Positions 3-61,751 are shown, counted from the first letter of the whole stretch. The stretch: 63,318 nt of DNA, filler included, from Candidatus Desantisbacteria bacterium CG1_02_49_89 (GCA_001871075.1; 4 parts of 4 records of this genome joined end to end with filler, not necessarily neighbours in it), one strand, 5' to 3'. The notes: generated by a model not told the origin, from the letters alone. Program-made: numbers and translations.

Positions 3-2930
3 ATGACACAGAAGGAAGCGATGAACACAGATAAAATCATTATTCGCGGGGCAAGAGAGCACAATTTAAAGAACATAAACGTGGAAATACCGCGCAACAA
101 ACTTGTCGTGATAACCGGCTTAAGCGGCTCAGGCAAATCCACGCTCGCTTTCGACACCCTTTACGCGGAGGGGCAGCGCAGGTACGTGGAATCCCTTTCA
201 GCTTACGCGAGGCAGTTCCTCGAGCAGATGGAAAAGCCCAGCGTTGATGAGATAACAGGACTTTCTCCCGCGATAGCCATACAGCAGCGCGCGGCAAGCC
301 ACAACCCGCGTTCCACTGTTGCCACAGTCACCGAAATTTACGATTACCTCAGGGTGCTTTTCGCCCGCATAGGCGTTCCCTTCTGCTACAAATGCGGCCG
401 CAAAATACAGCGCCAGTCCGTGGACGAGATCATCAGCCAGATAATGCAGTCGAGCGTCATACGTCATACGTCGCACGACATACGACGTCCGACGTCCGAC
501 GGGAGAATCGACATACTCGGCCCGCTTATCCGGGGCAGGAAGGGCGAATACAGGGATATAGTTGAAGATGTTAAAAAGCAGGGTTTTATCCGGGTGCGGA
601 TCGACGGGACGATCTACGATATTTCCGAGGAGCTGCCCAGGCTCGCGAAATATAAGAAGCACGACATAGAAGTGGTTGTTGACAGGATAGCGCTGACGCC
701 TGAAAACAGGAACCGGCTTGCGGATTCACTGGAAACCGCGCTCAAGATCGGCAAGGGCCTTGTCATGATACAATTCCATAGAGAAAAAATCCCCCTCAAT
801 CCCCCTTTGCTAAAAGGGGAGAAAGGGGGATTACGACATCCGACGTCCGACGCACGACGTCCGACGTTATTGTTCTCCGAACAATTGTCCTGCCCGAAAT
901 GCTCGATAAACTACGAGGAGATCTCGCCCAGGTCTTTCTCTTTCAACAGCCCTTACGGGGCCTGCCCCGGGTGTTTGGGCCTGGGCGCGAAAATGGTAGT
1001 GGACCCGGACCTTGTCGTCCCCGATAAGAACAAGTCGGTTAACGACGGCGCCATAGAGCCCTGGTCAAAAGGCATGGGATTCTACCGATGGAAAGCCGCG
1101 GCAAGCAACTGGTATCTTTCGATGATCGAGGATATCGCGAAAAAGCGGCGCATCGACCTGGATGTGCCTTTCGCCAGGCTGCCCAAAGAGCACCAGAATA
1201 TACTTCTTGTCGGAAGCCCGGAGGACAATTTCGAGGGCGTGATAACGAACCTGGAGCGCCGGTATAAAGAAACGGATTCTGAAAATGTCCGCCGGGACAT
1301 CTACGAGAAATACATTTCCTACGTGACCTGCTCCGCCTGCAAAGGGGACCGGCTGAAGCCCGAGAGCCTTTCGGTCAGGATAAACGGCAGGAACATATCT
1401 GAGATAGCCAGGATGCCGGTTAAAAGCCTTTTTGAATTCTTTGCGGATCTGAAGCTGAACGAACAGGAGCGCGTGATAGCGCGCGAGGTTATAAAAGAGA
1501 TCAGGGCGCGCCTGGGGTTCCTTGTGGATGTGGGCCTGGATTACCTCACGCTTGACAGGACAGCCGAGACGCTTTCGGGCGGGGAGGCGCAGAGAGTGCA
1601 CCTCGCCACCCAGATAGGGTCGGGCCTGGTCGGTGTGCTCTACATTCTGGACGAGCCCACAATAGGGCTGCACCAGCGCGACAACAAAAAATTGCTATCA
1701 ACCCTTGTAAGCCTGCGCAACCTCGGGAACACCGTTATTGTTGTGGAGCACGACAAGGAAACCATAATGTCCGCTGACCACGTCATTGACCTTGGGCCCG
1801 GCCCCGGGATCCACGGGGGCAGGATCGTGGCTGAAGGAACTGTCTCCGACATAATCAAATGCCCGGGATCGCTTACCGGCAAGTATCTGAAAGGGGAGCT
1901 TGCGATAAAAGTGCCCGGGGCAAGGAGGAAGCCGGCCGGTTTCATCACGATCGAGGGCGCTTCGCAGTTCAACCTGAAAGACATCACCGCGAAGATACCC
2001 CTGGGGATCTTTACCTGCGTCACCGGGGTTTCGGGTTCGGGCAAGAGCACGCTTGTGAACGAGATACTTTACAAGGCGCTTGCAAAAAGAATATATAACG
2101 CGAAGGACAAACCGGGCAGGTTCAGGAAGATACTGGGGGCTGAAAAAATAGACAAGATAATCATAATCGACCAGTCGCCGATAGGAAGGACCCCCCGTTC
2201 GAATCCAGCGACATACACGGGAGCGTTCGCTCCCATAAGGGATGTTTTCGCGATGCTGCCCGAGTCAAAGGCAAGGGGGTATTTGCCGGGAAGGTTCTCT
2301 TTCAACGTGAAGGGCGGCAGGTGCGAGGCATGCCAGGGCGACGGGGTCAAGAAAGTCGAGATGCACTTCCTTGCCGACGTTTACGTGACCTGCGAGGTCT
2401 GCAAGGGGGCGAGGTACAACCGTGAAACTCTTGAGATAAGGTACAAGGGCAGGAACATAAGCGAGGTCCTGGACATGATCCTGGAGGAGGCGCTTGAGTT
2501 CTTCAAGAATATCCCCCGGATCCACAGGAAGCTGCGGATGCTTAATGACGTGGGCCTCGGGTATATAAAAGTAGGGCAGTTCGCCACGACGCTTTCAGGC
2601 GGGGAAGCGCAAAGGGTTAAGCTCGCCACAGAGCTGAGCAAGATAGGCACAGGCAGGACCATATACATCCTTGACGAGCCCACTACCGGCCTTCACTTCG
2701 CTGACGTTGACAAGCTTTTAAGCGTGCTGCACCGGCTCACCGACGCGGGGAACACCGTTATAGTGATCGAGCACAACCTGGAAGTGATAAAAACAGCGGA
2801 TTACGTTATCGACCTGGGGCCTGAAGGCGGGGATGAGGGCGGAAGGGTTGTTGCGAAGGGCACTCCTGAGGAAATAGCCGGATGCGCCGGATCCTACACC
2901 GGCCAGTTCCTTAAAAAGATCCTGAAATAA
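3..2930 (+). CDS. uvrA: Excinuclease ABC subunit A, with two in-frame repeat-derived insertions
   Basis: [15 protein letters not shown]-terminus; two Walker A motifs ([16 protein letters not shown]); two LSGGEAQR signatures; Zn fingers. The start could be the ATG at 3 or at 21. Confidence 0.98.
449..500. repeat. In-frame inverted pair of 7-mer arrays (GTCATAC / GTCCGAC family) inside uvrA
   Basis: gtcgagc gtcatac gtcatac gtcg cacgac atacgac gtccgac gtccgac. The same family is intergenic at ~10550-10580 and 27966-28071. Confidence 0.85.
787..866. repeat. In-frame CCCCC..GGGGG hairpin repeat plus CGACGTC-type 7-mer array inside uvrA
   Basis: aaatccccctcaatccccctttgctaaaaggggagaaagggggatt matches intergenic copies at 47978-48023 and ~40617-40652. 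It encodes [27 protein letters not shown]. Confidence 0.88.
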
Positions 2931-3125
2931 TTTCCACGAAAACACGAAAGTATCACGAAAGCACGAAATTCAGCCACGGATTGTTTGCTTCGCAACATTC
3001 TTTGTGAGCCACGTCGATAAACGACGAATTGCACGGATTTTTACTCTATAAACTTGTAAACTGTGTAAACTTTATAAACTGCCTTTAAGGCTTTTGCTCT
3101 GACACGCTGACACGCTGATACGCGT
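2930..3125. repeat. Composite intergenic repeat cluster (CACGAAA block, GCCACG..CACGGAT block, TAAACT repeats, CTGACACG 8-mers)
   Basis: The CACGAAA block recurs at ~58425 and ~62738. 3008-3041 is nearly the reverse complement of 61919-61952. Confidence 0.8.
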
Positions 3126-4613
3126 TTATTCCTCTGGCAATTCTGCTTCCCCTCCCTCGGGGAAGAGCGTGTTTTCTATTTTAGCGCGCTTGCGCACGTT
3201 CTTGAACCATTCCTGCAAAACCTGGTATTCCCTGGCGTTCTGGACTTCCTGCCTTAGTTCTGAAAGGGTTTCCGTGTCTTTAACCGCGATTGACTGCGGC
3301 ACGTTCTTCTCGACGACTTTCGCAAGCAGGTATCCTTCTTCTGTTTTAAGGGGACCGCTCCACTCGCCGGTTTTGAGGTTCAGGATGGATTTTTTCAGTT
3401 CAGCGTCGCCTTTTATCCCCGGTATTTCCTTCGTCACCCTGAATAACTGGGTTGTTTTTATGCCTGAGGCGTAATTTTTTTCTCCCCCGGTTTTAAGGCC
3501 CGCGGAAATCTCTTTCGCGCGGTTGCCCGCCATTTCTTCCTGCTTCACGGACACAACTTCTTCTTTTATTTCCTTTCCTGCTTCCCCGATCGCGGGGACG
3601 TGCGCCTCTATTCTTTGGACCAGCCTCAGTATGTAAAAGAACTTTTCGGATTCAAGCCTGTCGGTCAGTTCTCCGGGGTCTGAAAGCATGAACGCGGCCT
3701 GGCTGAAAAGCTGGAAATCCTGGTTGTCAAGGCTCTGCAGCCTGGTGAAAAGCGGTGTTTTGTCGTATTCCAGGTTATACCTGTTGCCTGTTTCCCTCAT
3801 GTCTTTTTTGTCCTTATCCATTTCGTTGTAGGCGCTCTCCATTGTTTTCTTAAGGTTGGATATGATGCCGTTCCTTATCCCCGAATCCGGGATGTCCTCT
3901 TCGCTTGGTTTGGGCGCGGCAAGGTATTCGACCTGCACCTGCTCGGGTTTCTTGTATTTTTCCTTGTTTACCTCGTAGAATTTCTGCAGTTCCTGGTCCG
4001 AGGGCTGGAAGGGGAAGGCTTTGCGGTCAAGGTATATGTAATCCATCCTGACCTGGGCGTTCTGTTCCCTGTAGTATCCCAGCAGGTCTTCGTCGCTTGT
4101 TTTCACCGTGTTCCTTATCGCAAGTTCCAGCTTCCTTGCCAGCAGCGTTTTCTTCATCTCAAGCGTCTGGGTTTTCCACCAGCTATTGGGAAGAACTTTC
4201 TTGCCCTGCATGTACCTGTTGGGGTCGAACTGCCCGCTCTCGTTCTGGAAGATCTGCAGGGATTTCAGGGCTTCATCTATCTCGTAGCCGGTGGTCTTCA
4301 TCCCGTTCTTCAGGGCTTCCTGGTACATAAGCTCGTTGAACACCAGGTTGTTAAGTATCATCCTTTTAAGATTTTCAGCCATGGCGTCGTCAAAATCGTC
4401 GCTGTATGTTTTCCTGTACCTTTCAGCCCACTGGCTGTAGACAGAGTTAAAATCTTCGTAGGTGACTTTTTTGCCGTTTATTTTTGCCACGTAGTTCTTA
4501 GGGCCGCCCCTTCCCGAGAATTGAAGCCCCCACGCGATGGCTATAGTGGCAAGGAACACGACTATGATCCCCCATATGATAGCTTTCATATTCTTGCGCA
4601 ATCCTTCAAGCAT
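3126..4613 (-). CDS. SurA/PpiD-like membrane-anchored chaperone / peptidyl-prolyl isomerase (SurA N-terminal domain)
   Basis: MLEGLRKNMK..IIWGIIVVF N-terminal anchor; VAKINGKKVT; FQNESGQFDPNRY; GEWSGPLKTEEGY rotamase-like end. A GGAGGG RBS precedes the ATG at 4613. Confidence 0.85.
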   Translation of the reverse strand: MLEGLRKNMKAIIWGIIVVFLATIAIAWGLQFSGRGGPKNYVAKINGKKVTYEDFNSVYSQWAERYRKTYSDDFDDAMAENLKRMILNNLVFNELMYQEALKNGMKTTGYEIDEALKSLQIFQNESGQFDPNRYMQGKKVLPNSWWKTQTLEMKKTLLARKLELAIRNTVKTSDEDLLGYYREQNAQVRMDYIYLDRKAFPFQPSDQELQKFYEVNKEKYKKPEQVQVEYLAAPKPSEEDIPDSGIRNGIISNLKKTMESAYNEMDKDKKDMRETGNRYNLEYDKTPLFTRLQSLDNQDFQLFSQAAFMLSDPGELTDRLESEKFFYILRLVQRIEAHVPAIGEAGKEIKEEVVSVKQEEMAGNRAKEISAGLKTGGEKNYASGIKTTQLFRVTKEIPGIKGDAELKKSILNLKTGEWSGPLKTEEGYLLAKVVEKNVPQSIAVKDTETLSELRQEVQNAREYQVLQEWFKNVRKRAKIENTLFPEGGEAELPEE

Positions 4614-4629
4614 CTGTTCCCTCCATAGA

Positions 4630-4760
4630 AGATGATTACGGTGATTTTTTAACTGATGATTACGGTGATTATTTAAAACAACCAAAATCAGTATTTGTCA
4701 ATTAATCTTAAGATATTTCAATAATCACTGTAATCTCTTTTAGAATCACTGTAATCACAT
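4630..4760. repeat. GATTACGGTGATT / AATCACTGTAATC ~22-nt-period repeats in inverted arrangement
   Basis: The same motif occurs at ~15210-15335, 29873-29912, 58520-58603 and 62834-62871. Confidence 0.75.
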
Positions 4761-4941
4761 ATTATACCAAAAAACAAGGAAAATGCAAGTAAAACTTGCT
4801 AAAATCTCAAAAATCTGATATAATAGATACGCTTGACTATAATATATATCAAGTTACCCCCGCAGATTTTTTATGAAATCTGGACGCGGGGGTCCTTTCG
4901 GGACAATTAACAATTTACAATTTAAAATCAAGGAGAAAGAC

Positions 4942-6035: not shown

Positions 6036-6142
6036 GTCTTTGCGAGGAGCGGCAGCGACGAAGCAATCTCGTATGCAGATTGCTTCCCCGCCACGAATAT
6101 TTCCTCCATAAGAATTGGCGGACAAAGGCGGGTCGCAATGAC
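6036..6142. repeat. GTCATTGCGA..GCAATCT..AGATTGC..TCGCAATGAC palindromic element with nested CCGCC/GGCGG hairpin
   Basis: Related copies at 57180-57251, inside the 166-bp MITEs, and partial copies at ~12757, 16834, 35840 and 40557. Confidence 0.8.
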
Positions 6143-6944: not shown

Positions 6945-7553
6945 ATGTCGCAATTCGCGTATTACTTATTAGGGACCGCGTGCCTCTGCCTTGCCTTTAT
7001 AATCCAGATGAGCATCGGCAATTTTATACAGATAGTGTCCGTGAAACCCGCGCTCGCCCTGATCCCGCTTGTTTTTTTCACCCTGGGGATCTACCCGAAA
7101 TTTTTCTCAGGTCTGACCTTCAACGCTGCCTCACCGAAAGCCGGCAGGATGAAATTCCAGACCCGGTGGTATGCGCCCCGCGAAATGCCGATGGAAAACC
7201 TTTTGCGCGGCCTGGTGCTGGGGTTTCTGGCAGGGCTTATGGAGGGCGCGAATTCAGGATTTGTCGCAGGCTCTGTTCTTTCGTGGTGCGCGGCGGGCGC
7301 TTTCCTGGGCATTGTTTCAGGCCCGATCAACAGGGACAACGAATTCGTGATCTCGATACTTCTTTTTACTTCAGTGTTTATCCAGGCGCTGGTCTTCTCG
7401 TTTTTGCTTGTGGCAAGGTCGGAAGATTATCCGCTGGGGCCCTGCGCGTGGGCAGCGCTGATCTCGGCGCTTTATACCACGGTGCTTGGAACAGTTGCCA
7501 TAAGGTTTTTTGAGAAGAAAAAAACCGCCAGCGTGATCCGGTTCGGAGCGTAA
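6945..7553 (+). CDS. mreD: Rod shape-determining protein MreD (with an extra loop)
   Basis: Polytopic membrane protein between mreC and mrdA; VKPALALI and GLVLGFLAGLMEG motifs. Confidence 0.75.
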   Translation: MSQFAYYLLGTACLCLAFIIQMSIGNFIQIVSVKPALALIPLVFFTLGIYPKFFSGLTFNAASPKAGRMKFQTRWYAPREMPMENLLRGLVLGFLAGLMEGANSGFVAGSVLSWCAAGAFLGIVSGPINRDNEFVISILLFTSVFIQALVFSFLLVARSEDYPLGPCAWAALISALYTTVLGTVAIRFFEKKKTASVIRFGA

Positions 7554-10542: not shown

Positions 10543-10703
10543 TAAGTGCCGTCGAGCGTCTTACGTCGTACGTCATACGCTGGATACAAAATTTATTTAG
10601 AAAATAGACAGCATTTTTTATTTTTCGTAGGGCAAACCTTTAGGTTTGCTGAGTAGAAGATGTATTTGATATATATTCTTTCAACTGTTTAACGGGAGGA
10701 GAA

Positions 10704-11549: not shown

Positions 11550-11836
11550 GCATGTATTTCAGCCACGGATGCGCACGGATTTTCACGGCTTTGTTTATGT
11601 AGCTCAAACCTTCAGGTTTGATATCAGGGCTAAAGCCCTGAGTTATCCGCCCCGATGTTCATCGGGGCGAGACCTCGCCCCAAAGGGGCGGGCAATTAAA
11701 TTCCTTGTTTTTACTCTGACACGCTGACACGCTGCCTGCCCGCCGCAGTATTCGCAGCCTTTCCGCGAATAGCGGAGTTTTAAGGATGCGAAGTTTCTAC
11801 GCAGGCGGGACACGCATTAATTTGAAGGGAGTATCC

Positions 11837-12514: not shown

Positions 12515-12880
12515 TTCAGTATCCAGTATCCAGTGTCCAGTTTAAAACCAAGAAAAATTTCTCTGTGTCTCCGTGCTGTGCCCGCCAATCTTGGTGGCGT
12601 GGCCTCTGTGGTTAATCTCGTGTCTACCCGCCAAATAAATCCTGTCTGGACTAACCAGCACAATTTTTCGTTCATTTTTGTGTAGGGGCAGCCTGTCCGC
12701 CAGTTATTATGGTGGAACCTTGGTCTCCCTGCCTGTCATTGCGGCTGGTTTAAGGGGTCATTGCGAAGAGCGAAGCGACGAAGCAATCTATTTTGGTGGC
12801 TGAATTTCTATTTTTATTGCAACATTTTTCCTTGCAACGCGTATAATTATATAAGAAAAATACAGTTTAAGGATAAAGAA

Positions 12881-14270: not shown

Positions 14271-14407
14271 GCCTTTTTTTGCCACATTTTTGAGATTTTA
14301 GTAGTATATATAGTATAGGTAAAAAGCGTAGTTTTTGCGTTGACACGTTGATACGTTTTAAACCGTCAACTGTGGTCAATGGACTACTAAATAAGGGGGA
14401 GGTAGTA

Positions 14408-16906: not shown

Positions 16907-17485
16907 CTAGTGTGGTGTTTCTAACAGATCTTTACATTTGGGCTGTCATTGCGAGGAGTGTTAACGACGAAGCAATCTTGACCTAAAAATCGAGATTGCC
17001 ACGCTCCCTTTGGTCGCTCGCAATGACAACTCAAAGCAGAATCAAATGTCAAGGGATTTATGTGACACCACACTAGTGTGGTGTCTCTAACAGTTCTTTA
17101 CATTTGGGCTGTCATTGCGAGGAGTGTTAACGACGAAGCAATCTTNNNNNNNNNNNNNNNNNNNNNNNNNNNNNNNNNNNNNNNNNNNNTTAATTAATTA
17201 ANNNNNNNNNNNNNNNNNNNNNNNNNNNNNNNNNNNNNNNNNNNNGCTCCCTTTGGTCGCTCGCAATGACAACTCAAAGCAGAATCAAATGTCAAGGGAT
17301 TTATGTGACACCATACTAGTGTAGTGTCTCTAACAGATCTTTACATTTGGGCTGTCATTGCGAGGAGTGTTAACGACGAAGCAATCTTGACCTAAAAATC
17401 GAGATTGCCACGCTCCCTTTGGTCGCTCGCAATGACAACTCAAAGCAGAATCAAATGTCAAGGGATTTATGCGACACCATACTAG
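16907..17485. mobile_element. Tandem array of at least 3 copies of a 166-bp MITE joined at CTAG
   Basis: CTAG at 16907, 17073, 17316 and 17482; TIRs TAGTGTGGTGT..ACACCACACTA; internal GTCATTGCGA palindrome. The array spans an assembly linker. Confidence 0.85.
17146..17245. other. Artificial assembly linker/gap
   Basis: N44-TTAATTAATTAA-N44 (stops in all six frames). Confidence 0.97.
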
Positions 17486-17521: not shown

Positions 17522-18505
17522 ATGGAAATTGTAAGTGTAAAGAACTTAACGAAAAAATTCAAGGACTTCACCGCGGTTGACGGCATAACCTTTGACGTGC
17601 AGGAGGGCGAGATATTCGGCCTGCTCGGGCCCAACGGCGCGGGCAAGACCACCACCATACGGATGCTCATAACCCTTATACCGCCTTTTTCAGGCGGGGC
17701 AACGGTCGCGGGCAGCGACATCCTGAAAGACAGGGACAGGGTCAGGGAGAACATAGGGATAGTTTTTCAGGACCCCGCCCTTGACAGGCAGCTGACAGGA
17801 AGGGAAAACCTGGATTTCCACGCCAGGATGTATAACATGCCAAGGGAGAAACGCCTGCAGAAGATAACTGAGGTCCTTGAACTCGCGGACCTTACCGAGA
17901 AAGCGGACGAGCTTGTCGAGAATTATTCGGGCGGCATGCAGAGGCGGCTTGAGATCGCAAGAGGGCTCATGCACGCCCCCAAGGTTTTGTTCCTTGACGA
18001 ACCGACCCTTGGCCTGGATGTCCAGACCAGGAGAAAGATCTGGGACTACATCCAGAAACTGAACAGGGACCAGGGCACCACGATACTCATAACGACCCAT
18101 TATATGGATGAAGCCGACTACCTGTGCGGCAGGGTCGGCATAATGAACAGGGGAAAGATAGTGGCGCTTGACACGCCCAGGAACCTTAAGAACCTGATAG
18201 GGGCGGACGTTGTCACCCTTGAAATGGAAAACGGGGATCCCGGGCCTTTCGGGAAACTGGATTACGTGAAGAAAACCGTTGCGCACGGCAACCTTGTGAA
18301 CCTTAGCGTTGAGAACGGAGAACGGAAGATCCCTCTCCTGATGGAATTCGCGCAGTCTCAGGGCGTTAAGATCAAAAGCGTTGAGCTTCACAAACCAAGC
18401 CTTGAGGACGTTTTCCTGCAGTACACGGGAACCACCATTAAGGAAGTGAACACGGACAGCGAGGAAAGATCGCGGATAGGAATGAACATAAGAAGGGGCA
18501 GATAG
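17522..18505 (+). CDS. ABC-2 exporter ATP-binding protein (DrrA-like)
   Basis: GPNGAGKTT, YSGGMQRRLEIA, FLDEPT, TTHYMDEAD. Confidence 0.95.
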   Translation: MEIVSVKNLTKKFKDFTAVDGITFDVQEGEIFGLLGPNGAGKTTTIRMLITLIPPFSGGATVAGSDILKDRDRVRENIGIVFQDPALDRQLTGRENLDFHARMYNMPREKRLQKITEVLELADLTEKADELVENYSGGMQRRLEIARGLMHAPKVLFLDEPTLGLDVQTRRKIWDYIQKLNRDQGTTILITTHYMDEADYLCGRVGIMNRGKIVALDTPRNLKNLIGADVVTLEMENGDPGPFGKLDYVKKTVAHGNLVNLSVENGERKIPLLMEFAQSQGVKIKSVELHKPSLEDVFLQYTGTTIKEVNTDSEERSRIGMNIRRGR

Positions 18506-18506
18506 A

Positions 18507-27959: not shown

Positions 27960-27965
27960 TAATAC

Positions 27966-28071: not shown

Positions 28072-28091
28072 TATTTAAGGAAGGAACAAAC

Positions 28092-41600: not shown

Positions 41601-41687
41601 TTATTTAGTCAATTAGATGAGTTGCATAATATATTAAAAGAAAAATTATTACCAGAAATAATTGATTATGGGTTTATTAGTGAATAA
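41601..41687 (+). pseudogene. Probable 3' fragment of a gene truncated by the left MITE
   Basis: Open frame LFSQLDELHNILKEKLLPEIIDYGFISE* begins exactly at the MITE end. Confidence 0.45.
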
Positions 41688-41756
41688 AAGATGAAGTAAT
41701 GAAATAGAAATTTATAAGTAAGTTATTCGTATTTTGATAAGTAGGGAGTAAATAAC

Positions 41757-42970: not shown

Positions 42971-43043
42971 ATCAGCTTGACTTTGAGCCACCATAAATAA
43001 TAAGTGTTTTAAAAACTGATAGGACAGATCACAAAGAGAGAAA

Positions 43044-43598: not shown

Positions 43599-44384
43599 AT
43601 GTGCAGATTGTTTGGAATTATGGCTAATAGAGAAGTAGATATCGATTTTTCATTTTACAAAGCTGACAAACCATTTAAATCGTTTTCAAGAAGTAATCCA
43701 GATGGATGGGGAATAGGTTATTACAAAAATGGCAAGGCAGAAGTTTTTAAGGAAGGATTGGACGATGTTGAAAAATATGACTTTAACAAAATAGAGTATA
43801 TAAAATCAAATATAGTTATTTCACACGTAAGAAAAGCCGCTCAGTATGGTGGCAATTCAAGTAAAAATGCGCATCCTTTTAAATATAAAAATTGGATATT
43901 TGCCCATAACGGTGTTGTAAAAAGAGAAAGAATATTAGAATGTTTGGATGAAGAATACAAACAGGAATTAACCAGCGAAAACGATACCGAAATATATTTT
44001 CGTTTACTTTTACAAGAAATTAATAGGAGTTCTAATGTAATTAATGGAATAAAAACTGGTATTAAAATAGTAAAGGAGCAGGTTGATTATACTGGTCTGA
44101 ATTTTGTCATGTCTGACGGAGAAACTTTATATGCTTACAGAGATGCTTCAGAAAACAAAAATTATTATTCCTTATATTTTCTTGAACGAAAACCCCAAAA
44201 AGGAAAAGAATTTAATTTTAAATCTAAGGCAACCAATCAATTAATGCACAGTAAATGTTTATTGGGCGAAAAAGCAGTTTTGTTTTGTTCGGAAAAAATG
44301 ACTGAAGAAGAATGGCAAGAAATTGAATTAGGAAAATTATTTATTGTAGATCCTAAGTTAGAAATAACAAAGATTAAATTATAA
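43599..44384 (+). CDS. Class II glutamine amidotransferase / Ntn-hydrolase (YafJ/EgtC-like)
   Basis: MCRLFG (Cys2 nucleophile), NPDGWG, SHVRKA, NAHPF, FAHNG, NDTE. Confidence 0.9.
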   Translation: MCRLFGIMANREVDIDFSFYKADKPFKSFSRSNPDGWGIGYYKNGKAEVFKEGLDDVEKYDFNKIEYIKSNIVISHVRKAAQYGGNSSKNAHPFKYKNWIFAHNGVVKRERILECLDEEYKQELTSENDTEIYFRLLLQEINRSSNVINGIKTGIKIVKEQVDYTGLNFVMSDGETLYAYRDASENKNYYSLYFLERKPQKGKEFNFKSKATNQLMHSKCLLGEKAVLFCSEKMTEEEWQEIELGKLFIVDPKLEITKIKL

Positions 44385-44659
44385 ATTAAGGAAGATTGCC
44401 GATTACCCGAGTATATTTTGCAGCATTTTCAAGTTCTGCGTGTATAATAAGATAATACCATTCATTTTCTGCTTGATTAATAGGAAGAAATGTGGTATAA
44501 TGATATAAGAGGTTAGGGGTTGGGAATAGGGAAGGCTAAAGTAGCTTACAAGTTAAAAGCGGTTCTTTGAAAATTGGGGATTGAAGAGGCATGCCTGCCC
44601 GGAAGAAAGGTTCTTTAAAGGAAAAGGTAATAAAGACGATGGTGTTAGAAGGAGGGTGC

Positions 44660-44866
44660 ATGGAACAGAACAACCCGGCAGGGCAGCAGAATTTGAACAA
44701 GAAATGGCTTAAGGAGTTTTTCCAGATTCCTCTTGATTGGCTTTCATTTTTACTGGTAGCAACCGTGTCAATTATCCACGCAATAAAAACATCATATTAT
44801 CTTACAAACACAGAAGAGGGAAAGGCGGAAATAGAAAGGCAGGCAAAAGAAAGGTTGGATAGGTAA
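44660..44866 (+). CDS. Small membrane-associated hypothetical protein
   Basis: GGAGGG RBS before the ATG at 44660; one hydrophobic helix; upstream TGTGGTATAAT. Confidence 0.45.
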   Translation: MEQNNPAGQQNLNKKWLKEFFQIPLDWLSFLLVATVSIIHAIKTSYYLTNTEEGKAEIERQAKERLDR

Positions 44867-45128
44867 AGAAACTGGTAGAGGTGGCGTGCCTCAGTTTGAC
44901 TTTAAACCACTATACGTAAAAATATAGATGGAAATTAGAAGCCGGTGCTATCACAGGGCCGGTTTTCTATTTTGTCTCTCCTTATAATCGAATACACTTG
45001 ACTTTTTCAAGTTTTAATATATAATAGACTTGCATAATTAGATGCTATATTCAATATATAAATAATGAACTCAAGTTAGATTACAACACAGACCCAGACT
45101 GCGTTATAGTTGACAAGGAGTATTAAAA

Positions 45129-45286
45129 ATGAAAAAACTAATCTTGATCTCATTGTTAGTATTATTAGCGGCAACTGCCTATGCACAAGATACAAAGACT
45201 ACTGCTGCGGTTATGGATTTAACTGCTGAGCAGGGAGTTTCCGCAGGTACAGCAAAGGCACTTTCAGACTATTTGCGAGTCCAGCT
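45129..45286 (+). pseudogene. Exported protein (CsgG/LpoB-like N-terminus) truncated by the right MITE
   Basis: Signal peptide MKKLIL..AYA and AAVMDLTAEQGVS..ALSDYLRVQL, after which the frame runs into MITE sequence. Confidence 0.65.
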
Positions 45287-45402
45287 TGTAAATTGTAATC
45301 AAAAATTGACCCACCTTGTAATGACAATTGACCCGTCTTTTATATTGTAGGAGTGGGTCAAACCAGATTACAATATGGGTCAAAGATGCATTATTATTGA
45401 CA
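45287..45402. mobile_element. 116-bp IS21-like MITE, right copy (direct orientation)
   Basis: Differs from 41485-41600 at only one position that I could see. Confidence 0.88.
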
Positions 45403-45577
45403 GCCAGATCAAGGGGAAGGCCAGAGAAAATAAAATAAATGGTCGCTGTCCCTATTAAAATTAAAGTTTTCTTCCCTTAATTTCATATCAAATAATCTTG
45501 ACATTGAACGAAAATATGCTATAATATAGTCTCCTAAATATCTATATCATTAAATATATATTCGCGGGAAGGAAACG

Positions 45578-45760
45578 ATGCCGGTTTTGAAGACAAAGCT
45601 GAATAATGAGGAAAAAGAACTGGATTTTGAGCTGAAGTACCAACTGTCGCTGACAACAGAGCAGAGGTTCAGGATGATGTTTAAAAAATCAAGGGAAATG
45701 CAGGAGATGCTGCAGAAAAATGGACACCGAAAACCTTTTGAGGTCATTAAAAGAAAATAA
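45578..45760 (+). CDS. Small protein, probable partner of the downstream nucleotidyltransferase
   Basis: ELDFELKYQLSLTTEQRFRMM; promoter TTGACA-N16-TATAAT at 45498-45525; overlaps the next gene. Confidence 0.6.
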   Translation: MPVLKTKLNNEEKELDFELKYQLSLTTEQRFRMMFKKSREMQEMLQKNGHRKPFEVIKRK

Positions 45761-45828
45761 GGTAAAATTCGTTATCATAGGCGCCACTGCTTTTCCTGTG
45801 CACGGTTACAGCAGGGCAACCCTTGACA
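45720..45828 (+). CDS. Nucleotidyltransferase-family protein, N-terminal part (cut by the gap; not in the ORF track)
   Basis: MDTENLLRSLKENKVKFVIIGATAFPVHGYSRATLD (IG..A...HG..RATxD motif). Confidence 0.72.
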
Positions 45829-45928
45829 NNNNNNNNNNNNNNNNNNNNNNNNNNNNNNNNNNNNNNNNNNNNTTAATTAATTAANNNNNNNNNNNNNNNN
45901 NNNNNNNNNNNNNNNNNNNNNNNNNNNN
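45829..45928. other. Artificial assembly linker/gap
   Basis: N44-TTAATTAATTAA-N44. Confidence 0.97.
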
Positions 45929-47446
45929 CCAATCTGCCTCGTGCAGGCTGAAAGAACTGGAAAAGAACAAAGAGGAACCAGATTTATTCATTCAGAGGAT
46001 GTGAAGGAATATTTGATCAAACAATGCGGTATTTTAGAAGAACAGATAGCGATAAAAAGCAGCGAAAAGGATGACATTGAAGGCATTGATTTATTGAGCA
46101 AAGATTGCCAGATTCGATATATAATTACTAAACAAGCCTTGCAGGAAGGATGGGATTGTGCTTTTGCTTATATCCTTACGGTATTGACTAATCCGGGTTC
46201 TCAACTAAGTATTACTCAACTGGTTGGTAGAATTCTAAGGCAGCCAAAGGCAAAAAAAACAAAGGTAAAAGAGCTTGACGAAAGCTATGTTTTTTGTTTC
46301 AGGCAAAAAGCTAAAAATCTCCTTGAGAATGTAAAAGTAAGCTTTGAAGATGAGGGACTCGGAGACATAGCCGGGAGAATTACCATAGACGAGAGCGATG
46401 AACAGACGCTGAAAACAACAAAGGAAAGAACCGTTGGTTATAGGGAAGAATTTAAAAGATTTGAAGGAAAGATATATCTTCCTAAATTCGTTATTCAGGA
46501 GAATTCAAGCTGGCGCGATATCAATTATGAAATGGATATTTTAAGCAGGATAGACTGGGACGATATTGACATAAAGCCTTTAAGCGATATAACGCTTTCT
46601 AAAATACGGCAAGAAGAGCAAGAGGTAATAGTTGGTTTAAGTGATGATGAGAAGGAGGTCATAAAAGAGAAAAATAGGATTTCTAAAGCCGGGGGCTTGG
46701 AGATTGACAAGGTTTTTATAACCAGGCAGATTCTGGATATCGTTCCAAACCCCTGGGTTGCTTATGATATTGGCGTAAAAACTCTGGATATATTTCTAAA
46801 AAAAAGTGATAAGAAAATGGTTTCAACGAATCTTGCTTTTATCATTGAAGAACTAAGAAAAATTCTGGAAAAAGAAAAAGATAAATTAGCGGAACAAATA
46901 TTCAAGAAACTATTAGAAAACAAAACGTTGTGTTTCTTTTTAATTTCTGATAAGGGCGGCTATAAATTACCTGATACCATAAGGGTTAAAAATAATATAA
47001 AAGGACTTGTAAGAGATGACAATAGTCCCATACAGTTAAGCCTTTTTGATTTTGTCCCAGAAGAAGAATTAAATGAAACAGAAAAAACAGTTGCTCTTTA
47101 TCTTGATGAACAAGAGAAGCTTTTGTGGTGGTATAGAAATTTGTCACGGCAGGATTATTATGTGCAAGGGTGGAAGAAATACAAAATATATCCAGATTTT
47201 GTTTTTACGGATAAACGCCAAAAAACAAAGAGTGATTACAGTAAGATATTTGTGATAGAGACAAAAGGATTACATTTAAAAAACGAAGATACTGAGTATA
47301 AGAAGAATATTTTTAATTTTTGTAATAGCTTAGGACAGCAAAAAGATTGGAGAGATCTCAATCTTGAATTCAGCGATAAAAAAATTGAATTTCAGATTGT
47401 TTTTGAAGATGAATGGAGAAAACGAATAAACAAAATCTTTGAATAA
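45929..47446 (+). CDS. Type III restriction enzyme Res-like subunit, C-terminal part
   Basis: ALQEGWDC and QLVGRILRQP helicase motifs; YPDFVF..VIETKG nuclease motif; AT-rich; frame is open from the gap. Confidence 0.85.
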   Translation, partial: PICLVQAERTGKEQRGTRFIHSEDVKEYLIKQCGILEEQIAIKSSEKDDIEGIDLLSKDCQIRYIITKQALQEGWDCAFAYILTVLTNPGSQLSITQLVGRILRQPKAKKTKVKELDESYVFCFRQKAKNLLENVKVSFEDEGLGDIAGRITIDESDEQTLKTTKERTVGYREEFKRFEGKIYLPKFVIQENSSWRDINYEMDILSRIDWDDIDIKPLSDITLSKIRQEEQEVIVGLSDDEKEVIKEKNRISKAGGLEIDKVFITRQILDIVPNPWVAYDIGVKTLDIFLKKSDKKMVSTNLAFIIEELRKILEKEKDKLAEQIFKKLLENKTLCFFLISDKGGYKLPDTIRVKNNIKGLVRDDNSPIQLSLFDFVPEEELNETEKTVALYLDEQEKLLWWYRNLSRQDYYVQGWKKYKIYPDFVFTDKRQKTKSDYSKIFVIETKGLHLKNEDTEYKKNIFNFCNSLGQQKDWRDLNLEFSDKKIEFQIVFEDEWRKRINKIFE

Positions 47447-47932: not shown

Positions 47933-48053
47933 CCTAGTGCATAGTCTCATTAAAATTTGACAATAATTTATGGAACTAAATCCCCCCTGTCCCCCTTTGA
48001 TAAAGGGGGAGTAAGGGGGATTTGATTAGCAGGAATTGAAGAGACAGAGTACT

Positions 48054-48127
48054 AGTCGACAGTCCACAGTCGACAGACCACAGTTAAAATCATTAAAACT
48101 GTGGACCGTGGACTGTGGTCTATGGAC
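48054..48127. repeat. Inverted pair of 7-mer arrays (AGTCCAC / GTGGACT)
   Basis: Four units, a 15-nt AT spacer, then four reverse-complement units; preceded by the CCCCC/GGGGG hairpin at 47978-48023. Confidence 0.82.
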
Positions 48128-57179: not shown

Positions 57180-57251
57180 GTCATTGCGAGGAACGGCAGT
57201 GACGAAGCAATCTCGTATACAGATTGCCGCGCCCTTCGGGCTCGCAATGAC
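57180..57251. repeat. Complete GTCATTGCGA..TCGCAATGAC palindromic element
   Basis: Terminal 10-bp inverted repeat and internal GCAATCT/AGATTGC pair. Confidence 0.85.
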
Positions 57252-57297: not shown

Positions 57298-58404
57298 ATG
57301 GAAAATGAAAAGACGGCGTGGGTTGCCCTGAACATGGCGGGCATCGGGTCAGGAAAGCTGAAAAACCTCCTTCAGTTCTTCGGTTCGCCTGAAGGCATCC
57401 TGGGCAGAAGCGCGGGCGATCTGGGAAAAACTGAGGGCATAGGGGAAGAAACCGCGAGAAGAATTTCAGGATTTGCGGACGGCAAGGCTGCGAAGCGCGA
57501 GCTTGAAAAAGCGGAAAAAACCGGGGTCCGCGTAATGATCGCCGCGGACAAGGATTACCCGTTCCTGCTCAGCCAGATCTACGATCCCCCGATCGTGCTT
57601 TACGTAAAAGGGAAACTGCTTGAGCAGGACAGGAACGCGGTCGGCATAGTAGGTTCGCGCAGGCCAAGCATCCAGGGACGGCTCAACGCTGAGAAGCTGG
57701 GGACCGAGCTTGCGAGCAGGGGCTTTACCGTGGTAAGCGGGATGGCCCGGGGTATAGACACCGCCGGGCACAGGGGAGCTCTGTCCGCGAAGGGAAGGAC
57801 TATCGCGGTCATGGGAAGCGGGCTTGACGTTGTTTACCCGCCAGAGAACAAGGGCCTGATGGATGAAATTTCCAGAAGCGGCGCGGTTATAAGCGAATTC
57901 CCTTTCGGCACGAAGCCGGACCGGCAGAATTTCCCGCGCAGGAACAGGGTTGTTTCAGGCCTGAGCCTGGGTGTTGTGGTTGTTGAGGCAGGTGAGAAAA
58001 GCGGGGCGCTGATAACAGCCGGGTTCGCGCTTGAACAGGGCAGGGAGGTATTTGCAGTTCCGGGTAACGTGAACCTTCCCACCACGAAGGGCTGCCACCA
58101 GCTGATAAGGGACGGCGCGAAACTGGTGGAGAAGGTGGAAGACATTTTAGAAGAGCTTAATACAGACAGTGTCAGCGTGTCAGCGTGTCAGCGTGTCAAC
58201 GAAAAAGAAAAAGCCTCAAAACAATTACCGCTAAATAATGAAGAAGCAAAGATATACGAGCTGATCAGCGGGGAGCCGGTTTACATTGACGAGCTGGCAA
58301 AGCAGGCCGGCACGGAATCGTATAAGCTGAGCCAGGTGCTTGTGAATCTTGAGATACGCGGCCTTATAAAACAGCTTCCCGGCAAGTATTATGTTAAAAG
58401 ATAG
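57298..58404 (+). CDS. dprA: DNA-processing protein DprA (Smf)
   Basis: DYP..IYDPP, IVGSR, VSGMARGIDT, FPRRNR, VVEAGEKSGALITA; wHTH tail; (GTGTCAGC)n insert at 58169-58200. Confidence 0.96.
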   Translation: MENEKTAWVALNMAGIGSGKLKNLLQFFGSPEGILGRSAGDLGKTEGIGEETARRISGFADGKAAKRELEKAEKTGVRVMIAADKDYPFLLSQIYDPPIVLYVKGKLLEQDRNAVGIVGSRRPSIQGRLNAEKLGTELASRGFTVVSGMARGIDTAGHRGALSAKGRTIAVMGSGLDVVYPPENKGLMDEISRSGAVISEFPFGTKPDRQNFPRRNRVVSGLSLGVVVVEAGEKSGALITAGFALEQGREVFAVPGNVNLPTTKGCHQLIRDGAKLVEKVEDILEELNTDSVSVSACQRVNEKEKASKQLPLNNEEAKIYELISGEPVYIDELAKQAGTESYKLSQVLVNLEIRGLIKQLPGKYYVKR

Positions 58405-58424: not shown

Positions 58425-58603
58425 TTTCCACGAAAACACGAAAGTGTCACGAAATCACGAAATTTCAGTTTATGATTATAAACTGACAACTCACAACTGA
58501 CAACCGACAACTATTTTTATAATCACTGTAATCGTTAGTTAATAATCACCGTAATCGTCTTTAAATAATCACTGTAATCATCTTTTAAAAATCACTGTAA
58601 TCA
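58425..58603 (+). repeat. Composite repeat (CACGAAA block + AACTGAC 7-mers + AATCACTGTAATC) upstream of topA
   Basis: About 110 bp nearly duplicated at ~62738-62847. Confidence 0.82.
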
Positions 58604-58629: not shown

Positions 58630-60819
58630 ATGCCGAAGTCATTAGTAATAGTTGAGTCGCCCGCAAAGGCGAACACGATCAGCAAATTCTTGGGTCCTGA
58701 TTACACGATCAAGGCGAGTATGGGCCACATCAAGGACCTGCCCCTGAAGGAACTCGGGGTGGACGTGAACAACGGGTTCAAGCCTAAGTTCACCACCATA
58801 AAGCTGAAAAAGAAGATCGTGAAAGAGATAGTGGATGCCGCAAAGAAAGCGGACATGATATACATAGCCACTGACCCTGACAGGGAAGGAGAAGCGATAG
58901 CGCACCACCTTGCCCTGGAGGTCAGCCCGGGCAACAAAACGATCGACACCGAAAGGATCAAGAGGGTGACCTTCCACGAGATCACGAAGGAAGCCGTGAA
59001 CGCCGCCTTCCTGCATCCCGGGCCCATAGACACACACAAGGTTGAAGCCCAGCAGGCAAGGCGCATCCTGGACAGGCTCGTCGGCTATAAACTAAGCCCC
59101 CTGCTTTGGAGGAAAATAAGGGGAGGCTTAAGCGCGGGCAGGGTCCAGTCCGTGGCTTTGCGCATCATATGCGAGCGTGAGAAGCTCGCGGGCAAGTTCA
59201 AGCCGGAAGAATACTGGCTCATTACCGCGAAAGTCGAGAGCCCGTCCGCGCCGCCCCCGTTCATCGCGAGGCTTGAGAAAATTAAAAATGAAAAATTAAA
59301 AATTAAAAATGGGGAAGAAGCAAACAATATTGTAGCCGGGCTGAAGGGCGCCAGGTTCATCGTGTCGGATGTCCTCAAGGAGGACAAGAGGAAATTCCCG
59401 CTTCCGCCGTTCACGACAAGCACTATGCAGCAGGAATCGGTAAAGAACCTGGGAATGTCCGCCTCTAAAACGATGCGCGTGGCGCAGGCGCTTTACGAGG
59501 GTATCTCTGTGGGAGAAGAGGGCCCGGTCGGGCTGATAACCTACATGCGCACTGATTCGGTGAAGATCGCCCAGGAAGCGCAGAATTCCGCCATCAGGTA
59601 TATAAGGGAAAAATACGGCGAGCTTTCCCTGCCGTCAAAGCCCCCGGTTTACAAAAGCAACAAGCGCGCGCAGGAAGCGCACGAGGCGATCCGCCCGACA
59701 GGCCTTTCGCGCGACCCGGAGAAGATAAAGAAATACCTGGCTCCGGAGCAGTACAAGCTCTACAAGCTGATATGGGAAAGGTTCATAGCAAGCCAGATGA
59801 AATACGCGATGCTTGAGCTGACAACGATACTCATAGAGGCAGGCGACGCGGTTTTCAAGGCAACCGGGACGATAATCAAGGACAAGGGTTTTATGGCGGT
59901 ATATGGGTACGCCCAGCCGGATGCTTCCGAAAAGAAGGAAGAAGAGGAAGAGGATGACTCTGAAGCCGAGGAAAAGAAGGAACAGCGCCTTCCCGCCGTG
60001 AAGAAAGGCGAGGCGTTGAATGTCCTGGAGGTCCTGCCCAACCAGAAATTTACCAAGCCGCCCGCGCGCTATACCGAGGCAAGCCTTGTGAAGATGCTTG
60101 AGGAGAAGGGCATAGGCAGGCCCAGCACCTACGCGCCGATAATCCAGACAATACTGTTCAGAAGGTATGTTCTCAAGGAAAAAGGCAAGCTGATCCCCAC
60201 CGAGCTGGGCCAGCTCGTGAACGACATGCTGGTTGAGAATTTCCCGGTTGTCATAGATTCCAAATTCACCGCGGACCTGGAGAACGAGCTCGACGAGGTT
60301 GAAGAGGGCAAAACAGAATGGACAAAGGTGGTGAATGACCTTTACGTCCCATTTGAAGAAACCCTGAAAAAAGCCCAGAACAACATAGAAAAAATGAAAA
60401 GGAAGGCAGAGCCTACCGGAAAGATATGCCCGGAATGCGGCAGCCCTGTCGTGGAAAGGGAGGGAAGGTTCGGCAGTTTCCTCGCGTGTTCCGCCTATCC
60501 GAAATGCAAATACACGAAATCCGCGACCCTCAACATTCCCTGCCCGGCGCCCGGGTGCACCGGCGAGGTCGTGCAGCGCAGGACAAAAAAGGGCAGGACC
60601 TTCTACGGGTGCAGCAGGTACCCGCAGTGCAACTATATGTCCTGGCAGAAACCGGCAGGCAAAGATAACGTGTCAACGTCTCAGCGTGTCAACGTGTCAG
60701 AGTCAAAGACTGACCCGACCGCACCTGATGCACCGGACAGCGCCAAAACCACGGAGCCGGAAAAAGATAATTTAACCAGCGAGCCAGCGAACCAGCAAAC
60801 CAGCGAACCAAAAAAATGA
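58630..60819 (+). CDS. topA: DNA topoisomerase I
   Basis: LVIVESPAKA, ATDPDREGE, SAGRVQS, LITYMRTDS, QEAHEAIRPT, Zn ribbons; repeat-derived C-terminal tail. Confidence 0.98.
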   Translation: MPKSLVIVESPAKANTISKFLGPDYTIKASMGHIKDLPLKELGVDVNNGFKPKFTTIKLKKKIVKEIVDAAKKADMIYIATDPDREGEAIAHHLALEVSPGNKTIDTERIKRVTFHEITKEAVNAAFLHPGPIDTHKVEAQQARRILDRLVGYKLSPLLWRKIRGGLSAGRVQSVALRIICEREKLAGKFKPEEYWLITAKVESPSAPPPFIARLEKIKNEKLKIKNGEEANNIVAGLKGARFIVSDVLKEDKRKFPLPPFTTSTMQQESVKNLGMSASKTMRVAQALYEGISVGEEGPVGLITYMRTDSVKIAQEAQNSAIRYIREKYGELSLPSKPPVYKSNKRAQEAHEAIRPTGLSRDPEKIKKYLAPEQYKLYKLIWERFIASQMKYAMLELTTILIEAGDAVFKATGTIIKDKGFMAVYGYAQPDASEKKEEEEEDDSEAEEKKEQRLPAVKKGEALNVLEVLPNQKFTKPPARYTEASLVKMLEEKGIGRPSTYAPIIQTILFRRYVLKEKGKLIPTELGQLVNDMLVENFPVVIDSKFTADLENELDEVEEGKTEWTKVVNDLYVPFEETLKKAQNNIEKMKRKAEPTGKICPECGSPVVEREGRFGSFLACSAYPKCKYTKSATLNIPCPAPGCTGEVVQRRTKKGRTFYGCSRYPQCNYMSWQKPAGKDNVSTSQRVNVSESKTDPTAPDAPDSAKTTEPEKDNLTSEPANQQTSEPKK

Positions 60820-61751
60820 ACCTATCCGAAGTTTTAAACAGATTCTTCGCGTACCTGAAGGCAAAAAACGCTTCTAACCTCACGGTTAAGAATTACTTCA
60901 TTGACATCAAGCAGTTCCTCGCGTTCCTTAAAAAAGAGCAGGGGAACACAAACCTGGAAGAAACCACCTACGCCGTAATAAGGAAGTTCCTGGCAAACCT
61001 CACGGAAACCAGTTACCCGGTATCGCGGTCCGCCGGGCGCAGCCGCTACAAGAAGACCACCATAGCCAGGAGGCTTTCCTGCCTGCGCACTTTCTACAAA
61101 TTCCTCAACCGCAACAGCTATATTCCTTCAAATCCCATAAGGTTCCTGCGCACGCCCAAGCGGGAATCAAGGCTCCCTTCATTCCTGACGCCCCAGGAAA
61201 CAATTAAGCTCATTGAGTCTCCTCCCGTTGCCGCGGGTATTCCGTCGGCTTTAAGGGATAAAGCGATAATGGAGTTCCTGTATGCCACCGGCATGCGCGT
61301 CAGCGAGCTTACCGGCATGGACCTTAAGGACGTGGATGTTATAAGCGGGACCGTGAAGGTTTTCGGCAAAGGCAGGAAAGAACGCATTATTCCCGTAGGC
61401 CGTCCGGCCCTTTCCGCTTTAAAAAAATATTTGGAATCACGACGCACGACGCACGACGCACGACGCACGACAGAAAAACAGGCAGTTTTTCTGAACAAAT
61501 ACGGCGGGCGGCTGACGTCCCGCAGCGTCGAGAGCATTATACTGAAATACGCGAGGCAGGCCGGTCTGAAGAACGTGACTCCGCATACCTTAAGGCATTC
61601 TTTCGCGACACACCTGCTGGGCAACGGGGCGGACCTGAAAATGGTGCAGGAGCTTTTAGGCCACAAGAGCCTTTCTACAACCCAGATCTACACCCATATG
61701 ACGCCTGAGCATCTCAAGAAAGTATACGCCGGAGCACACCCGCGGGCCTGA
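60816..61751 (+). CDS. xerC: Tyrosine recombinase XerC
   Basis: LYATGMRVSEL, GKGRKER, PHTLRHSFATHLL, LLGH..TTQIYTH, HPRA end; dprA-topA-xerC context. Confidence 0.88.
   Translation: MNLSEVLNRFFAYLKAKNASNLTVKNYFIDIKQFLAFLKKEQGNTNLEETTYAVIRKFLANLTETSYPVSRSAGRSRYKKTTIARRLSCLRTFYKFLNRNSYIPSNPIRFLRTPKRESRLPSFLTPQETIKLIESPPVAAGIPSALRDKAIMEFLYATGMRVSELTGMDLKDVDVISGTVKVFGKGRKERIIPVGRPALSALKKYLESRRTTHDARRTTEKQAVFLNKYGGRLTSRSVESIILKYARQAGLKNVTPHTLRHSFATHLLGNGADLKMVQELLGHKSLSTTQIYTHMTPEHLKKVYAGAHPRA
61438..61471 (+). repeat. Perfect (CACGACG) x ~4.9 array inside xerC
   Basis: Encodes RRTTHDARRTT. Confidence 0.9.

Follow-up and report, generated by a model that had tools for sequence, protein, structure and literature searches.

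Repeats with a unit that is not a multiple of three nucleotides are normally purged from essential genes, as slippage shifts the reading frame each time. How, then, do tandem arrays of 7- and 8-nt units come to be translated within four genome-maintenance genes (uvrA, dprA, topA, and xerC) of Candidatus Desantisbacteria bacterium CG1_02_49_89 (GCA_001871075.1)? We address this question in a stretch of 63,318 nucleotides (63.3 kb; hereafter, the window), in which four parts of four records of this genome are joined end to end with filler. The window has about 48 coding regions, almost all of them on the plus strand, and public proteins near-identical to its products carry the label Candidatus Desantisbacteria. 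A literature search on Desantisbacteria repeats returned no published description.

A preliminary description of the window had proposed that an active process seeds short repeats throughout the genome, that core genes are invaded window-wide with a skew toward DNA-transaction enzymes, and that only frame-preserving events in tolerant loops survive. The coordinates on which this proposal was built agree with the sequence throughout. 'Window-wide' is an overstatement, given that the repeats affect four of the 48 coding regions, which lie at two places. Of the underlying idea, we regard the following form as probable: dispersed repeats, themselves probably selfish, would be filtered by selection to stop-free, frame-keeping sites in tolerant loops, where they would still be prone to slippage.

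The products of uvrA (3–2930), dprA (57298–58404), and topA (58630–60819), all on the plus strand, score above the curated cut-offs of their NCBIfam models. The xerC gene (60816–61751, plus strand) passes the cut-off of a subfamily-level tyrosine-recombinase model and falls slightly below those of the equivalog models (XerC, 326.9 bits vs 335.15; XerD, 317.5 vs 329.6); its product is 60 per cent identical to a named Desantisbacteria protein.

Repeats between and within genes

Tandem Repeats Finder (TRF) reports 85 rows in the window, chiefly of 7- or 8-nt units in two to six copies. For periods of 7, 8, 14, or 16 nt, the intergenic DNA (9,753 bases) has 33 arrays, or 3.38 per kb, whereas the coding DNA (53,301 bases) has 11, or 0.21 per kb, an approximately 16-fold lower density. 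Every spacer was read, and the spacers are mostly composed of 7–8-nt arrays, often paired and inverted around a short centre (e.g. 48054–48127, 38139–38249, and 27960–28075), together with GTAG-tagged hairpins and C5/G5 hairpins. Six arrays start 2–14 nt past a stop codon, and for 7 of the 33 the next start is at most 40 nt beyond the array.

Few as they are, the coding arrays exceed chance. When codons were shuffled within each gene (200 sets; the same four periods), 2.14 ± 1.46 arrays were obtained (maximum 8), compared with 11 observed; for arrays with a score of at least 45, the figures are 0.15 ± 0.40 (maximum 2) and 7. Coding hits in the window are thus far above codon-shuffled controls, as the proposed invasion would require. 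Six of the 11 correspond to segments already claimed as repeat-derived (two TRF rows in uvrA, and one each in dprA, the first and second parts of the topA tail, and xerC), and four are low-score, two-copy matches in genes for an ABC ATPase, an AAA ATPase, mreC, and a protein with a metallo-beta-lactamase fold. The remaining one, AAAATTA × 4.7 in topA (59278–59310, plus strand; TRF), was rejected as an insertion: it encodes a conserved Lys-rich stretch of normal length, with similar residues in relatives. Copies match perfectly in dprA (3.8 copies) and xerC (4.9), at 84–86 per cent in topA (4.1 and 4.6), and at 81 per cent in uvrA (4.9).

We defined a twin as a shared 10-mer, for which about 0.1 chance occurrences per word are expected. 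Intergenic twins were found for five of the eight listed segments (uvrA sites 1, 2a, and 2b, dprA, and topA tail 1), and the claim that most segments have them holds to that extent, the exceptions being xerC, topA tail 2, and a segment of glmS. A generic scan for coding–intergenic twins of 11 nt (15 clusters vs 6.76 ± 2.57 in 100 shuffles, maximum 15) was too noisy to add genes. All told, repeat derivation is borne out for six of the eight coding segments proposed (two in uvrA, two in the topA tail, and one each in dprA and xerC) and fails for glmS and mreD; the count of at least four repeat classes holds even without glmS. The segments are 30–82 nt long and, as had been suggested, create new peptide sequence, which differs with frame and unit.

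Insertions in uvrA

The first uvrA site (449–505, plus strand) is a heptamer-armed repeat with CGTCATA and CGACGTC arrays at 455–501 (TRF). It codes for about 13 extra residues, and solved UvrA structures are gapped by 13 residues at this place. Its twins lie at 10551–10579, 27974–27983, and 28053–28064, as well as in the second uvrA site, and its 10-nt start word (449–458) recurs in the intergenic elements at 10551 and 27974. The latter element (27960–28075, without assigned strand) is a palindrome with heptamer-array arms (DNA fold −27 kcal/mol, z = −2.48; shared words) and belongs to the twin family of both site 1 and site 2b.

The second site fuses two unrelated repeat classes, as does the intergenic region 47990–48127. 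Its first half, site 2a (786–830, plus strand), is a translated nested C5/G5 hairpin (DNA fold −14.7 kcal/mol, z = −3.77; none of 200 shuffles folded as well) with intergenic twins at 40618–40652 and 47990–48023. The other half, site 2b (834–867, plus strand), is a translated CGACGTC × 4.9 array (TRF) with twins at 482–501, 28053–28064, and 61440–61471. At site 2, the window protein has 31 residues where solved UvrA structures have 6 (about 25 extra).

UvrA relatives with 67–69 per cent identity have, at both loops, either no insert or one of another length or sequence; at site 1, one relative has about 40 residues, and proteins P0004 and P0005 lack site 2b. Both inserts are kept in all 10 near-identical proteins that cover the sites. 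Judged by these alignments, the two uvrA segments, which lie within residues 152–288 of 975, are true net insertions. Such clean net insertion relative to orthologs had been expected of all segments and is seen for these two only; topA, dprA, and xerC each differ from it, as described below.

The dprA linker and the topA tail

The array in dprA (58169–58198, plus strand; TRF score 60) consists of 3.8 perfect copies of GTGTCAGC. It encodes SVSVSACQRV (residues 291–300 of 368) in the linker that joins the Rossmann-like and C-terminal domains. Its twins are at 3099–3118, 11716–11734, and 14338–14347, all on the minus strand, and at 60669–60694 in topA tail 1. Specifically, the intergenic relatives of the dprA and topA octamers are an array of CTGACACG × 3.1 at 3099–3123 (minus strand; TRF and shared words), a second copy at 11716–11734, and a variant at 14338–14357 (both minus strand; shared words). 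The first two are the reverse complement of the coding units, in agreement with the preliminary description. The octamer is stop-free solely in the orientation found in the gene, and the orientation found between genes contains TGA; because an intact gene requires the absence of a stop, this explains the orientation and does not test it. The linker is hypervariable and different in each relative, and the window version is not longer than others, so there is no net gain.

A metagenome scan recovered the locus of the same species (L081) and loci of relatives (L082–L085) that keep the gene order rbr-dprA-topA-xerC. In topA, the comparison with these loci reveals a 3′ extension of about 45 codons (60664–60819, plus strand), the stop codon of which overlaps the xerC start. 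The extension contains two arrays on the plus strand, AACGTGTC × 4.1 at 60667–60699 (tail 1; TRF) and AACCAGCG × 4.6 at 60774–60810 (tail 2; TRF), which fall at residues 680–727 of 729, past the last conserved domain. The twins of tail 1 include the boundary word of the copy at 11713. The 45 residues that follow SWQKPAGKD are missing in L082, L084, and L085, where stops occur 9–16 codons after SWQKP, and the xerC start lies 176 nt from SWQKP in the window, compared with 72–96 nt in relatives. The tail is therefore the topA–xerC spacer, enlarged by arrays and read through; the corresponding spacer of L084 itself contains an octamer array. The topA tail is an extension of the gene into a repeat-filled spacer after loss of an ancestral stop, and no loop insert. 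Arrays adjoin stop codons in the window, and loss of a stop, or insertion over it, would therefore extend a gene into an array, as in topA.

The tail is identical in all 12 cluster members that reach it (14 members in the cluster). TopA products of 228 and 229 amino acids terminate without altered residues and look like contig ends rather than frameshifts. A search of genome contigs with TopA gave a best match of 52 per cent identity (Omnitrophica) and none closer.

Elsewhere in TopA, the near-identical protein P0275 lacks 22 residues of an acidic low-complexity loop (alignment columns 424–445, approximately residues 424–445). The same loop bears a GTAG hairpin in L085.

The xerC array and an apparent unit-loss allele

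The array in xerC (61438–61471, plus strand; TRF score 68) consists of 4.9 perfect copies of CACGACG and encodes RRTTHDARRTT in a length-variable loop of the catalytic domain (residues 208–219 of 311). The unit matches solely uvrA 848–859 (shared 10-mers). Compared with solved Xer proteins, the loop has 2–5 additional residues, and it is variable among all relatives; in both xerC and dprA, the array occupies a hypervariable stretch and lengthens the protein slightly or not at all. Four lineages have peptides with a 7-residue period at this loop (e.g. RPSAIEH-RPS), the residues of which differ among lineages. Because three heptamers encode seven residues, we infer from these protein sequences that heptamer arrays are present at the xerC loop of the four lineages as well. 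In two further lineages, the loop holds unrelated inserts, the longest of 28 residues. The XerC tree (13 rows) does not resolve the Desantisbacteria clade and is compatible with one or several origins of the array.

The protein P0122, encoded on a single 17.9-kb contig, is 223 residues long and identical to XerC until the array, after which it reads QKNRQFF and stops. In silico deletion of exactly 7 nt from the array yields P0122 residue for residue, and other changes of the array (±14, +7, and ±21 nt) do not reproduce it. Intact XerC is found on 34 contigs and the truncated form on one. The latter ends before HTLRHSF and TQIYTH, two stretches that all aligned relatives conserve and that we take to carry the catalytic histidine, arginine, and tyrosine of tyrosine recombinases.

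Two further observations concern Xer proteins. Residues 64–78 of XerC (61005–61050) form a second lineage-specific stretch, SYPVSRSAGRSRYKK, with a low predicted local distance difference test (pLDDT) score; two relatives carry other inserts in this loop, and no repeat twin was found for the window stretch. Additionally, L082 encodes a second Xer-type recombinase (17986–18873 of that locus), 38 per cent identical to window XerC and 7 kb downstream of the first. If also present in the window species, it might buffer loss of XerC by slippage.

Segments without support

The glmS gene (26091–27959, plus strand; above the curated NCBIfam cut-off) had been thought to contain a repeat-derived segment at 26502–26528 (plus strand), a GTAG motif followed by a hairpin. 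This attribution is not supported. The segment has no twin, and although the loop exceeds that of Escherichia coli by 6 residues, its length is the same in a named Desantisbacteria relative, in P0283, and in many other phyla. The hairpin has one stem mismatch and a 3-nt loop, and its fold has z = −2.32 (4 of 200 shuffles as good). We rejected glmS as a member of the GTAG-tagged family, which has at least 13 intergenic copies in the window, 10 of 13 with perfect stems, on account of its imperfect stem, the lack of a sequence twin, and a chance-level frequency: GTAG-plus-hairpin shapes show no excess in coding DNA (3 vs 4.3 ± 1.9 in shuffles). The segment is kept in all eight cluster members. 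The second candidate, mreD, had been named only as a possibility. Its extra loop (7080–7200, plus strand) is a lineage-wide insertion common to relatives down to 33–39 per cent identity and has no twin or other sign of repeat origin; window MreD matches no NCBIfam or Pfam model.

Recurrence in relatives and variation among strains

Relatives carry repeats of their own at the same sites. Many intergenic 7–8-nt arrays, with units different from those of the window, are present in L084 and L085; L082 is compact and without such arrays. L085 carries in-frame copies of a GTAG hairpin, of which there are three tandem twins between genes, at two sites, the dprA linker and the topA acidic loop; L083 has an in-frame GTAG hairpin in topA. 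Across the loci of four relatives, 4 of 44 frames have a stretch of at least 15 nt with an intergenic twin, and three of the four are dprA or topA.

Within the species, little variation of the arrays was seen. The window stretch is contained in 24 groundwater or aquifer runs, represented as Logan contigs without raw reads, in which rare variants are invisible; arrays were compared in the contigs of four runs. In all four, contigs run unchanged through the arrays of dprA and the topA tail. Depth is raised over the array bins, a signal that may stem from other loci or organisms and was given no weight. No array length variation was seen at uvrA, glmS, dprA, or the topA tail in 90 per cent clusters.

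DNA-transaction genes

All four affected genes are among the five DNA-transaction genes (uvrA, ligA, dprA, topA, and xerC) in the 48 coding regions, and within the window the skew noted in the preliminary description holds (hypergeometric P = 2.6e-5, a nominal value, as the category was picked post hoc). Weighted by coding length, the P-value is 1.5e-4 for five events and 0.03 if the adjacent dprA, topA, and xerC genes are counted as one locus. In the loci of relatives, two of three hits fall within 10 of 42 frames (P = 0.14). For the genome as a whole, the skew is unproven, given that it comes from two loci, and we doubt, without thinking it far-fetched, that a genuine genome-wide skew exists.

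Origin of the coding repeats

The explanation that we consider probable would run as follows. The genome would hold many short dispersed repeats, namely arrays of 7–8-nt units, often as the arms of palindromes, and small tagged or G/C-rich hairpins, which would fill the spacers and commonly adjoin stop and start codons. Occasionally, a copy would enter a gene, or a gene would lose its stop and extend into a copy. Persistence would presumably require the absence of a stop in any frame of the given orientation, a net length that keeps the frame, and a tolerant loop, linker, or tail; this filter would leave the copies in the two uvrA loops, the dprA linker, the topA C-terminus, and the xerC loop, translated into low-complexity peptides without evident function. 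Arrays within genes would remain mutable through replication slippage, and loss of one heptamer in xerC would shift the frame and remove the catalytic C-terminal part. Such alleles would be rare, as purifying selection would predict. In line with the survival of copies in tolerant sites, each surviving coding copy is placed where ortholog length varies. From this variability and a weak structure model, the coding copies are likely to be located at the protein surface. Net lengths in multiples of three are no independent test, because an intact frame forces them.

An alternative is that slippage amplified short native motifs in place, and that the likeness among arrays reflects a mutational preference for CGTC- or TGTC-type words. 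The lack of intergenic twins for topA tail 2 and for the xerC unit would fit such a local origin, and the differing 7-residue periodic peptides of four lineages at the xerC loop would fit long residence with turnover in place. However, the units of dprA and topA tail 1 are identical to the arrays at 3099, 11716, and 14338; uvrA site 1 shares its 10-nt start word with 10551 and 27974, and topA tail 1 its boundary word with 11713; and uvrA site 2 joins two unrelated classes, as does 47990–48127. The presence of the same units and, in part, the same boundary words at several intergenic sites argues that the coding segments belong to dispersed families, and we therefore regard a purely local origin as unlikely. 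Chance or artefact, in the form of low-complexity coding sequence or assembly chimeras, fits the topA match at 59278–59310, glmS, which stands at chance level, and the outcome of the loose 11-mer scan. For uvrA, dprA, topA, and xerC, it is largely refuted by the excess over codon-shuffled controls, by perfect multi-copy arrays identical to intergenic ones, and by the occurrence of the same sequences in many independent assemblies and four runs; as a general account, it is exceedingly improbable.

The arrays might also be kept as contingency switches, with changes in unit number toggling uvrA, dprA, and xerC to give mutator, competence, and recombination variants. The frameshifted xerC allele is one heptamer shorter, 7- and 8-nt units change the frame at each step, all four hosts handle DNA, and arrays persist at the xerC loop across several lineages. 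On the other hand, the off allele is on one contig as opposed to 34 intact ones and may be an assembly error; no variation was seen at uvrA, dprA, or topA in cluster members, L081, or the four runs; uvrA and topA have short arrays of imperfect copies; the arrays lie mid-gene or at the gene end and not near the start; and those of topA are past the last conserved domain, where a frameshift alters only the tail. On balance, regulation of this kind is very unlikely. It is similarly hard to credit that the arrays are maintained microsatellite switches of Desantisbacteria genome-maintenance genes, by which XerC and, by extension, UvrA and DprA would be reversibly turned off and on, and there is just as slim a prospect that an array at the xerC loop persisted through species divergence as such a switch while its unit sequence turned over. 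If true, the arrays would provide bet-hedging control of recombination, repair, and transformation, and the DNA-handling nature of all four window hosts would be accounted for.

Several observations weigh against the spread and filtering of selfish repeats that we favour. In topA tail 2 and xerC, where intergenic twins are lacking, a local slippage origin is possible. No transposase, target-site duplication, or other trace of mobility was found in the window, and no RAYT-type transposase was seen there, although no dedicated search was made. The frameshifted xerC allele is a single assembled contig, and among the listed contigs of the four runs none spans the array; because an assembler can collapse a perfect 34-nt array, the allele may reflect such a collapse. 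The XerC structure model has a mean pLDDT of 64.8, so the array is only loosely placed in a flexible segment. The L081 locus (99.6 per cent identical over 5.7 kb) has no array difference, and with no length variation at the dprA, topA, and uvrA arrays in cluster members and runs, there is little to indicate that the process is still active: the xerC allele one heptamer shorter fits the proposed ongoing seeding, and the other arrays do not vary. Finally, a purely neutral filter does not predict that all four hosts should be DNA-transaction genes.

Other features of the window

Further repeats and repeat-affected gene starts were seen in the spacers. At 16930–17480, a unit of about 200 nt is repeated in tandem at least three times, with interruptions by masked N runs, and each copy holds a hairpin-type repeat of the form GTCATTGCGAGGAG...GACGAAGCAATCT; the same hairpin word occurs singly at 6040–6090, 12770–12800, 35840–35870, and 57180–57250. 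One composite intergenic element is present in three copies (2935–2968, 58429–58512, and 62743–62825) and opens with CACGAAA-type arrays; the latter two copies continue with a short palindrome, an AACTGAC array, and AATCACTGTAATC-type repeats before the next gene start. AACTGAC resembles the TAACTGA repeats of Beggiatoaceae and cyanobacteria that are treated in part of a study of such repeats (PMC4679880). The longest frames of a ppiD-like gene (4611–4685) and mreB (4873–4941) begin within intergenic arrays (a 24-mer × 1.9 at 4631–4676 and ACAATTT × 3.7 at 4903–4928, respectively). The real starts probably lie further inside, and automatic gene calls may add repeat-coded N-termini to both proteins.

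A region of low G+C content at 41233–47446 (32–36 per cent, compared with about 50 per cent in the rest of the window) looks like an inserted defence or mobile island. It encodes a class-II glutamine amidotransferase-like protein, three frames without Pfam match (42482–42970, 43044–43598, and 45941–47446), and, at 41757–42482, the sole GIY-YIG protein of the window, which also has RAMA and DUF4357 domains. We rejected the latter as an Ssn-type nuclease, since it is multi-domain and published descriptions give Ssn proteins a single domain. The sequence of approximately 41490–41600, about 110 nt long, recurs at approximately 45285–45395. Lastly, the spacer 5′ of lacZ (29280–29760) contains a stretch at 29362–29450 that may be tRNA-like, with hairpin repeats around it; its 3′ end words recur at approximately 29720–29745.

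Significance and comparison with known systems

The coding repeats provide a natural map of insertion-tolerant sites in UvrA, TopA, DprA, and XerC, and they illustrate how peptide sequence and the 3′ end of a gene can be newly made from probably selfish intergenic DNA. In natural groundwater populations, loss-of-function alleles may arise from them spontaneously, and such repeats call for caution in the annotation and assembly of such genomes.

Phase-variable contingency loci are known in Haemophilus and Neisseria. The window arrays are like them in having units that are not multiples of three within a reading frame, such that a change of one unit shifts the frame, as in the xerC allele. They differ in that the arrays are short, the hosts are housekeeping genes and not surface or restriction-modification genes, and there is one variant allele, from one contig and unconfirmed by reads. 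None of uvrA, dprA, topA, and xerC is a surface or restriction-modification gene with a repeat at its 5′ end or promoter. There is also a likeness to GTAG-tagged repetitive extragenic palindromic (REP) sequences, given the intergenic GTAG-plus-hairpin repeats of the window and the in-frame copies in L083 and L085; the difference is that the window has no supported coding copy, the one in glmS having failed.

In-frame repeat insertions have been described for Rickettsia palindromic elements (RPEs) and also for ERIC, BOX, and QMITE elements, in the portion of PMC10969869 that deals with them and that cites Ogata et al. (2000). Against that account, the window repeats resemble RPEs in being dispersed in intergenic as well as coding DNA, in their in-frame position in housekeeping genes that are unrelated to each other, and in leaving the genes unbroken, with added peptides compatible with the fold (PMC10969869). 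A family with both intergenic and in-frame coding copies is found for uvrA sites 1, 2a, and 2b, dprA, and topA tail 1. Insertion at a permissive, probably surface-exposed site, also typical of RPEs, is seen in uvrA; dprA and xerC have no net insertion, and topA has an extension. RPEs are about 150 bp long with a conserved peptide per family, as set out in the same part of that source (PMC10969869), whereas here there are pieces of 30–82 nt, built of 7–8-nt tandem words or very small hairpins, from several families, and no window segment is a 100–150-bp element with a family-specific conserved peptide. Moreover, one case here is the extension of a gene into a spacer, and slippage of the arrays here can change the frame.

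Long simple-sequence repeats (LSSRs) are the other close counterpart. The relevant sections of two studies, which summarize Mrazek et al. (2007), describe heptanucleotide LSSRs as common in some bacteria, where they lie between genes and are scarce within them (PMC4679880, PMC4692102), and MacGregor relates the sites at which repeats are tolerated to stop codons within the unit (in a section of PMC4679880). The LSSRs treated there have units of 5–11 nt, and the heptamer and octamer arrays of the window are like them in having two to six copies, in being strongly intergenic, and in lying near start and stop codons (PMC4679880, PMC4692102). The window arrays likewise consist of short units joined head to tail, at a frequency above that expected from composition (codon shuffles). 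They differ in that no window unit is of the G-quadruplex type, many units occur per genome, arrays are paired as the arms of palindromes, and several are translated in essential genes. Thus, in-frame repeat insertions and intergenic heptamer arrays are both already known; new are the many unit families that serve as palindrome arms, their translation in essential genes at sites that recur across species, and an apparent unit-loss allele.

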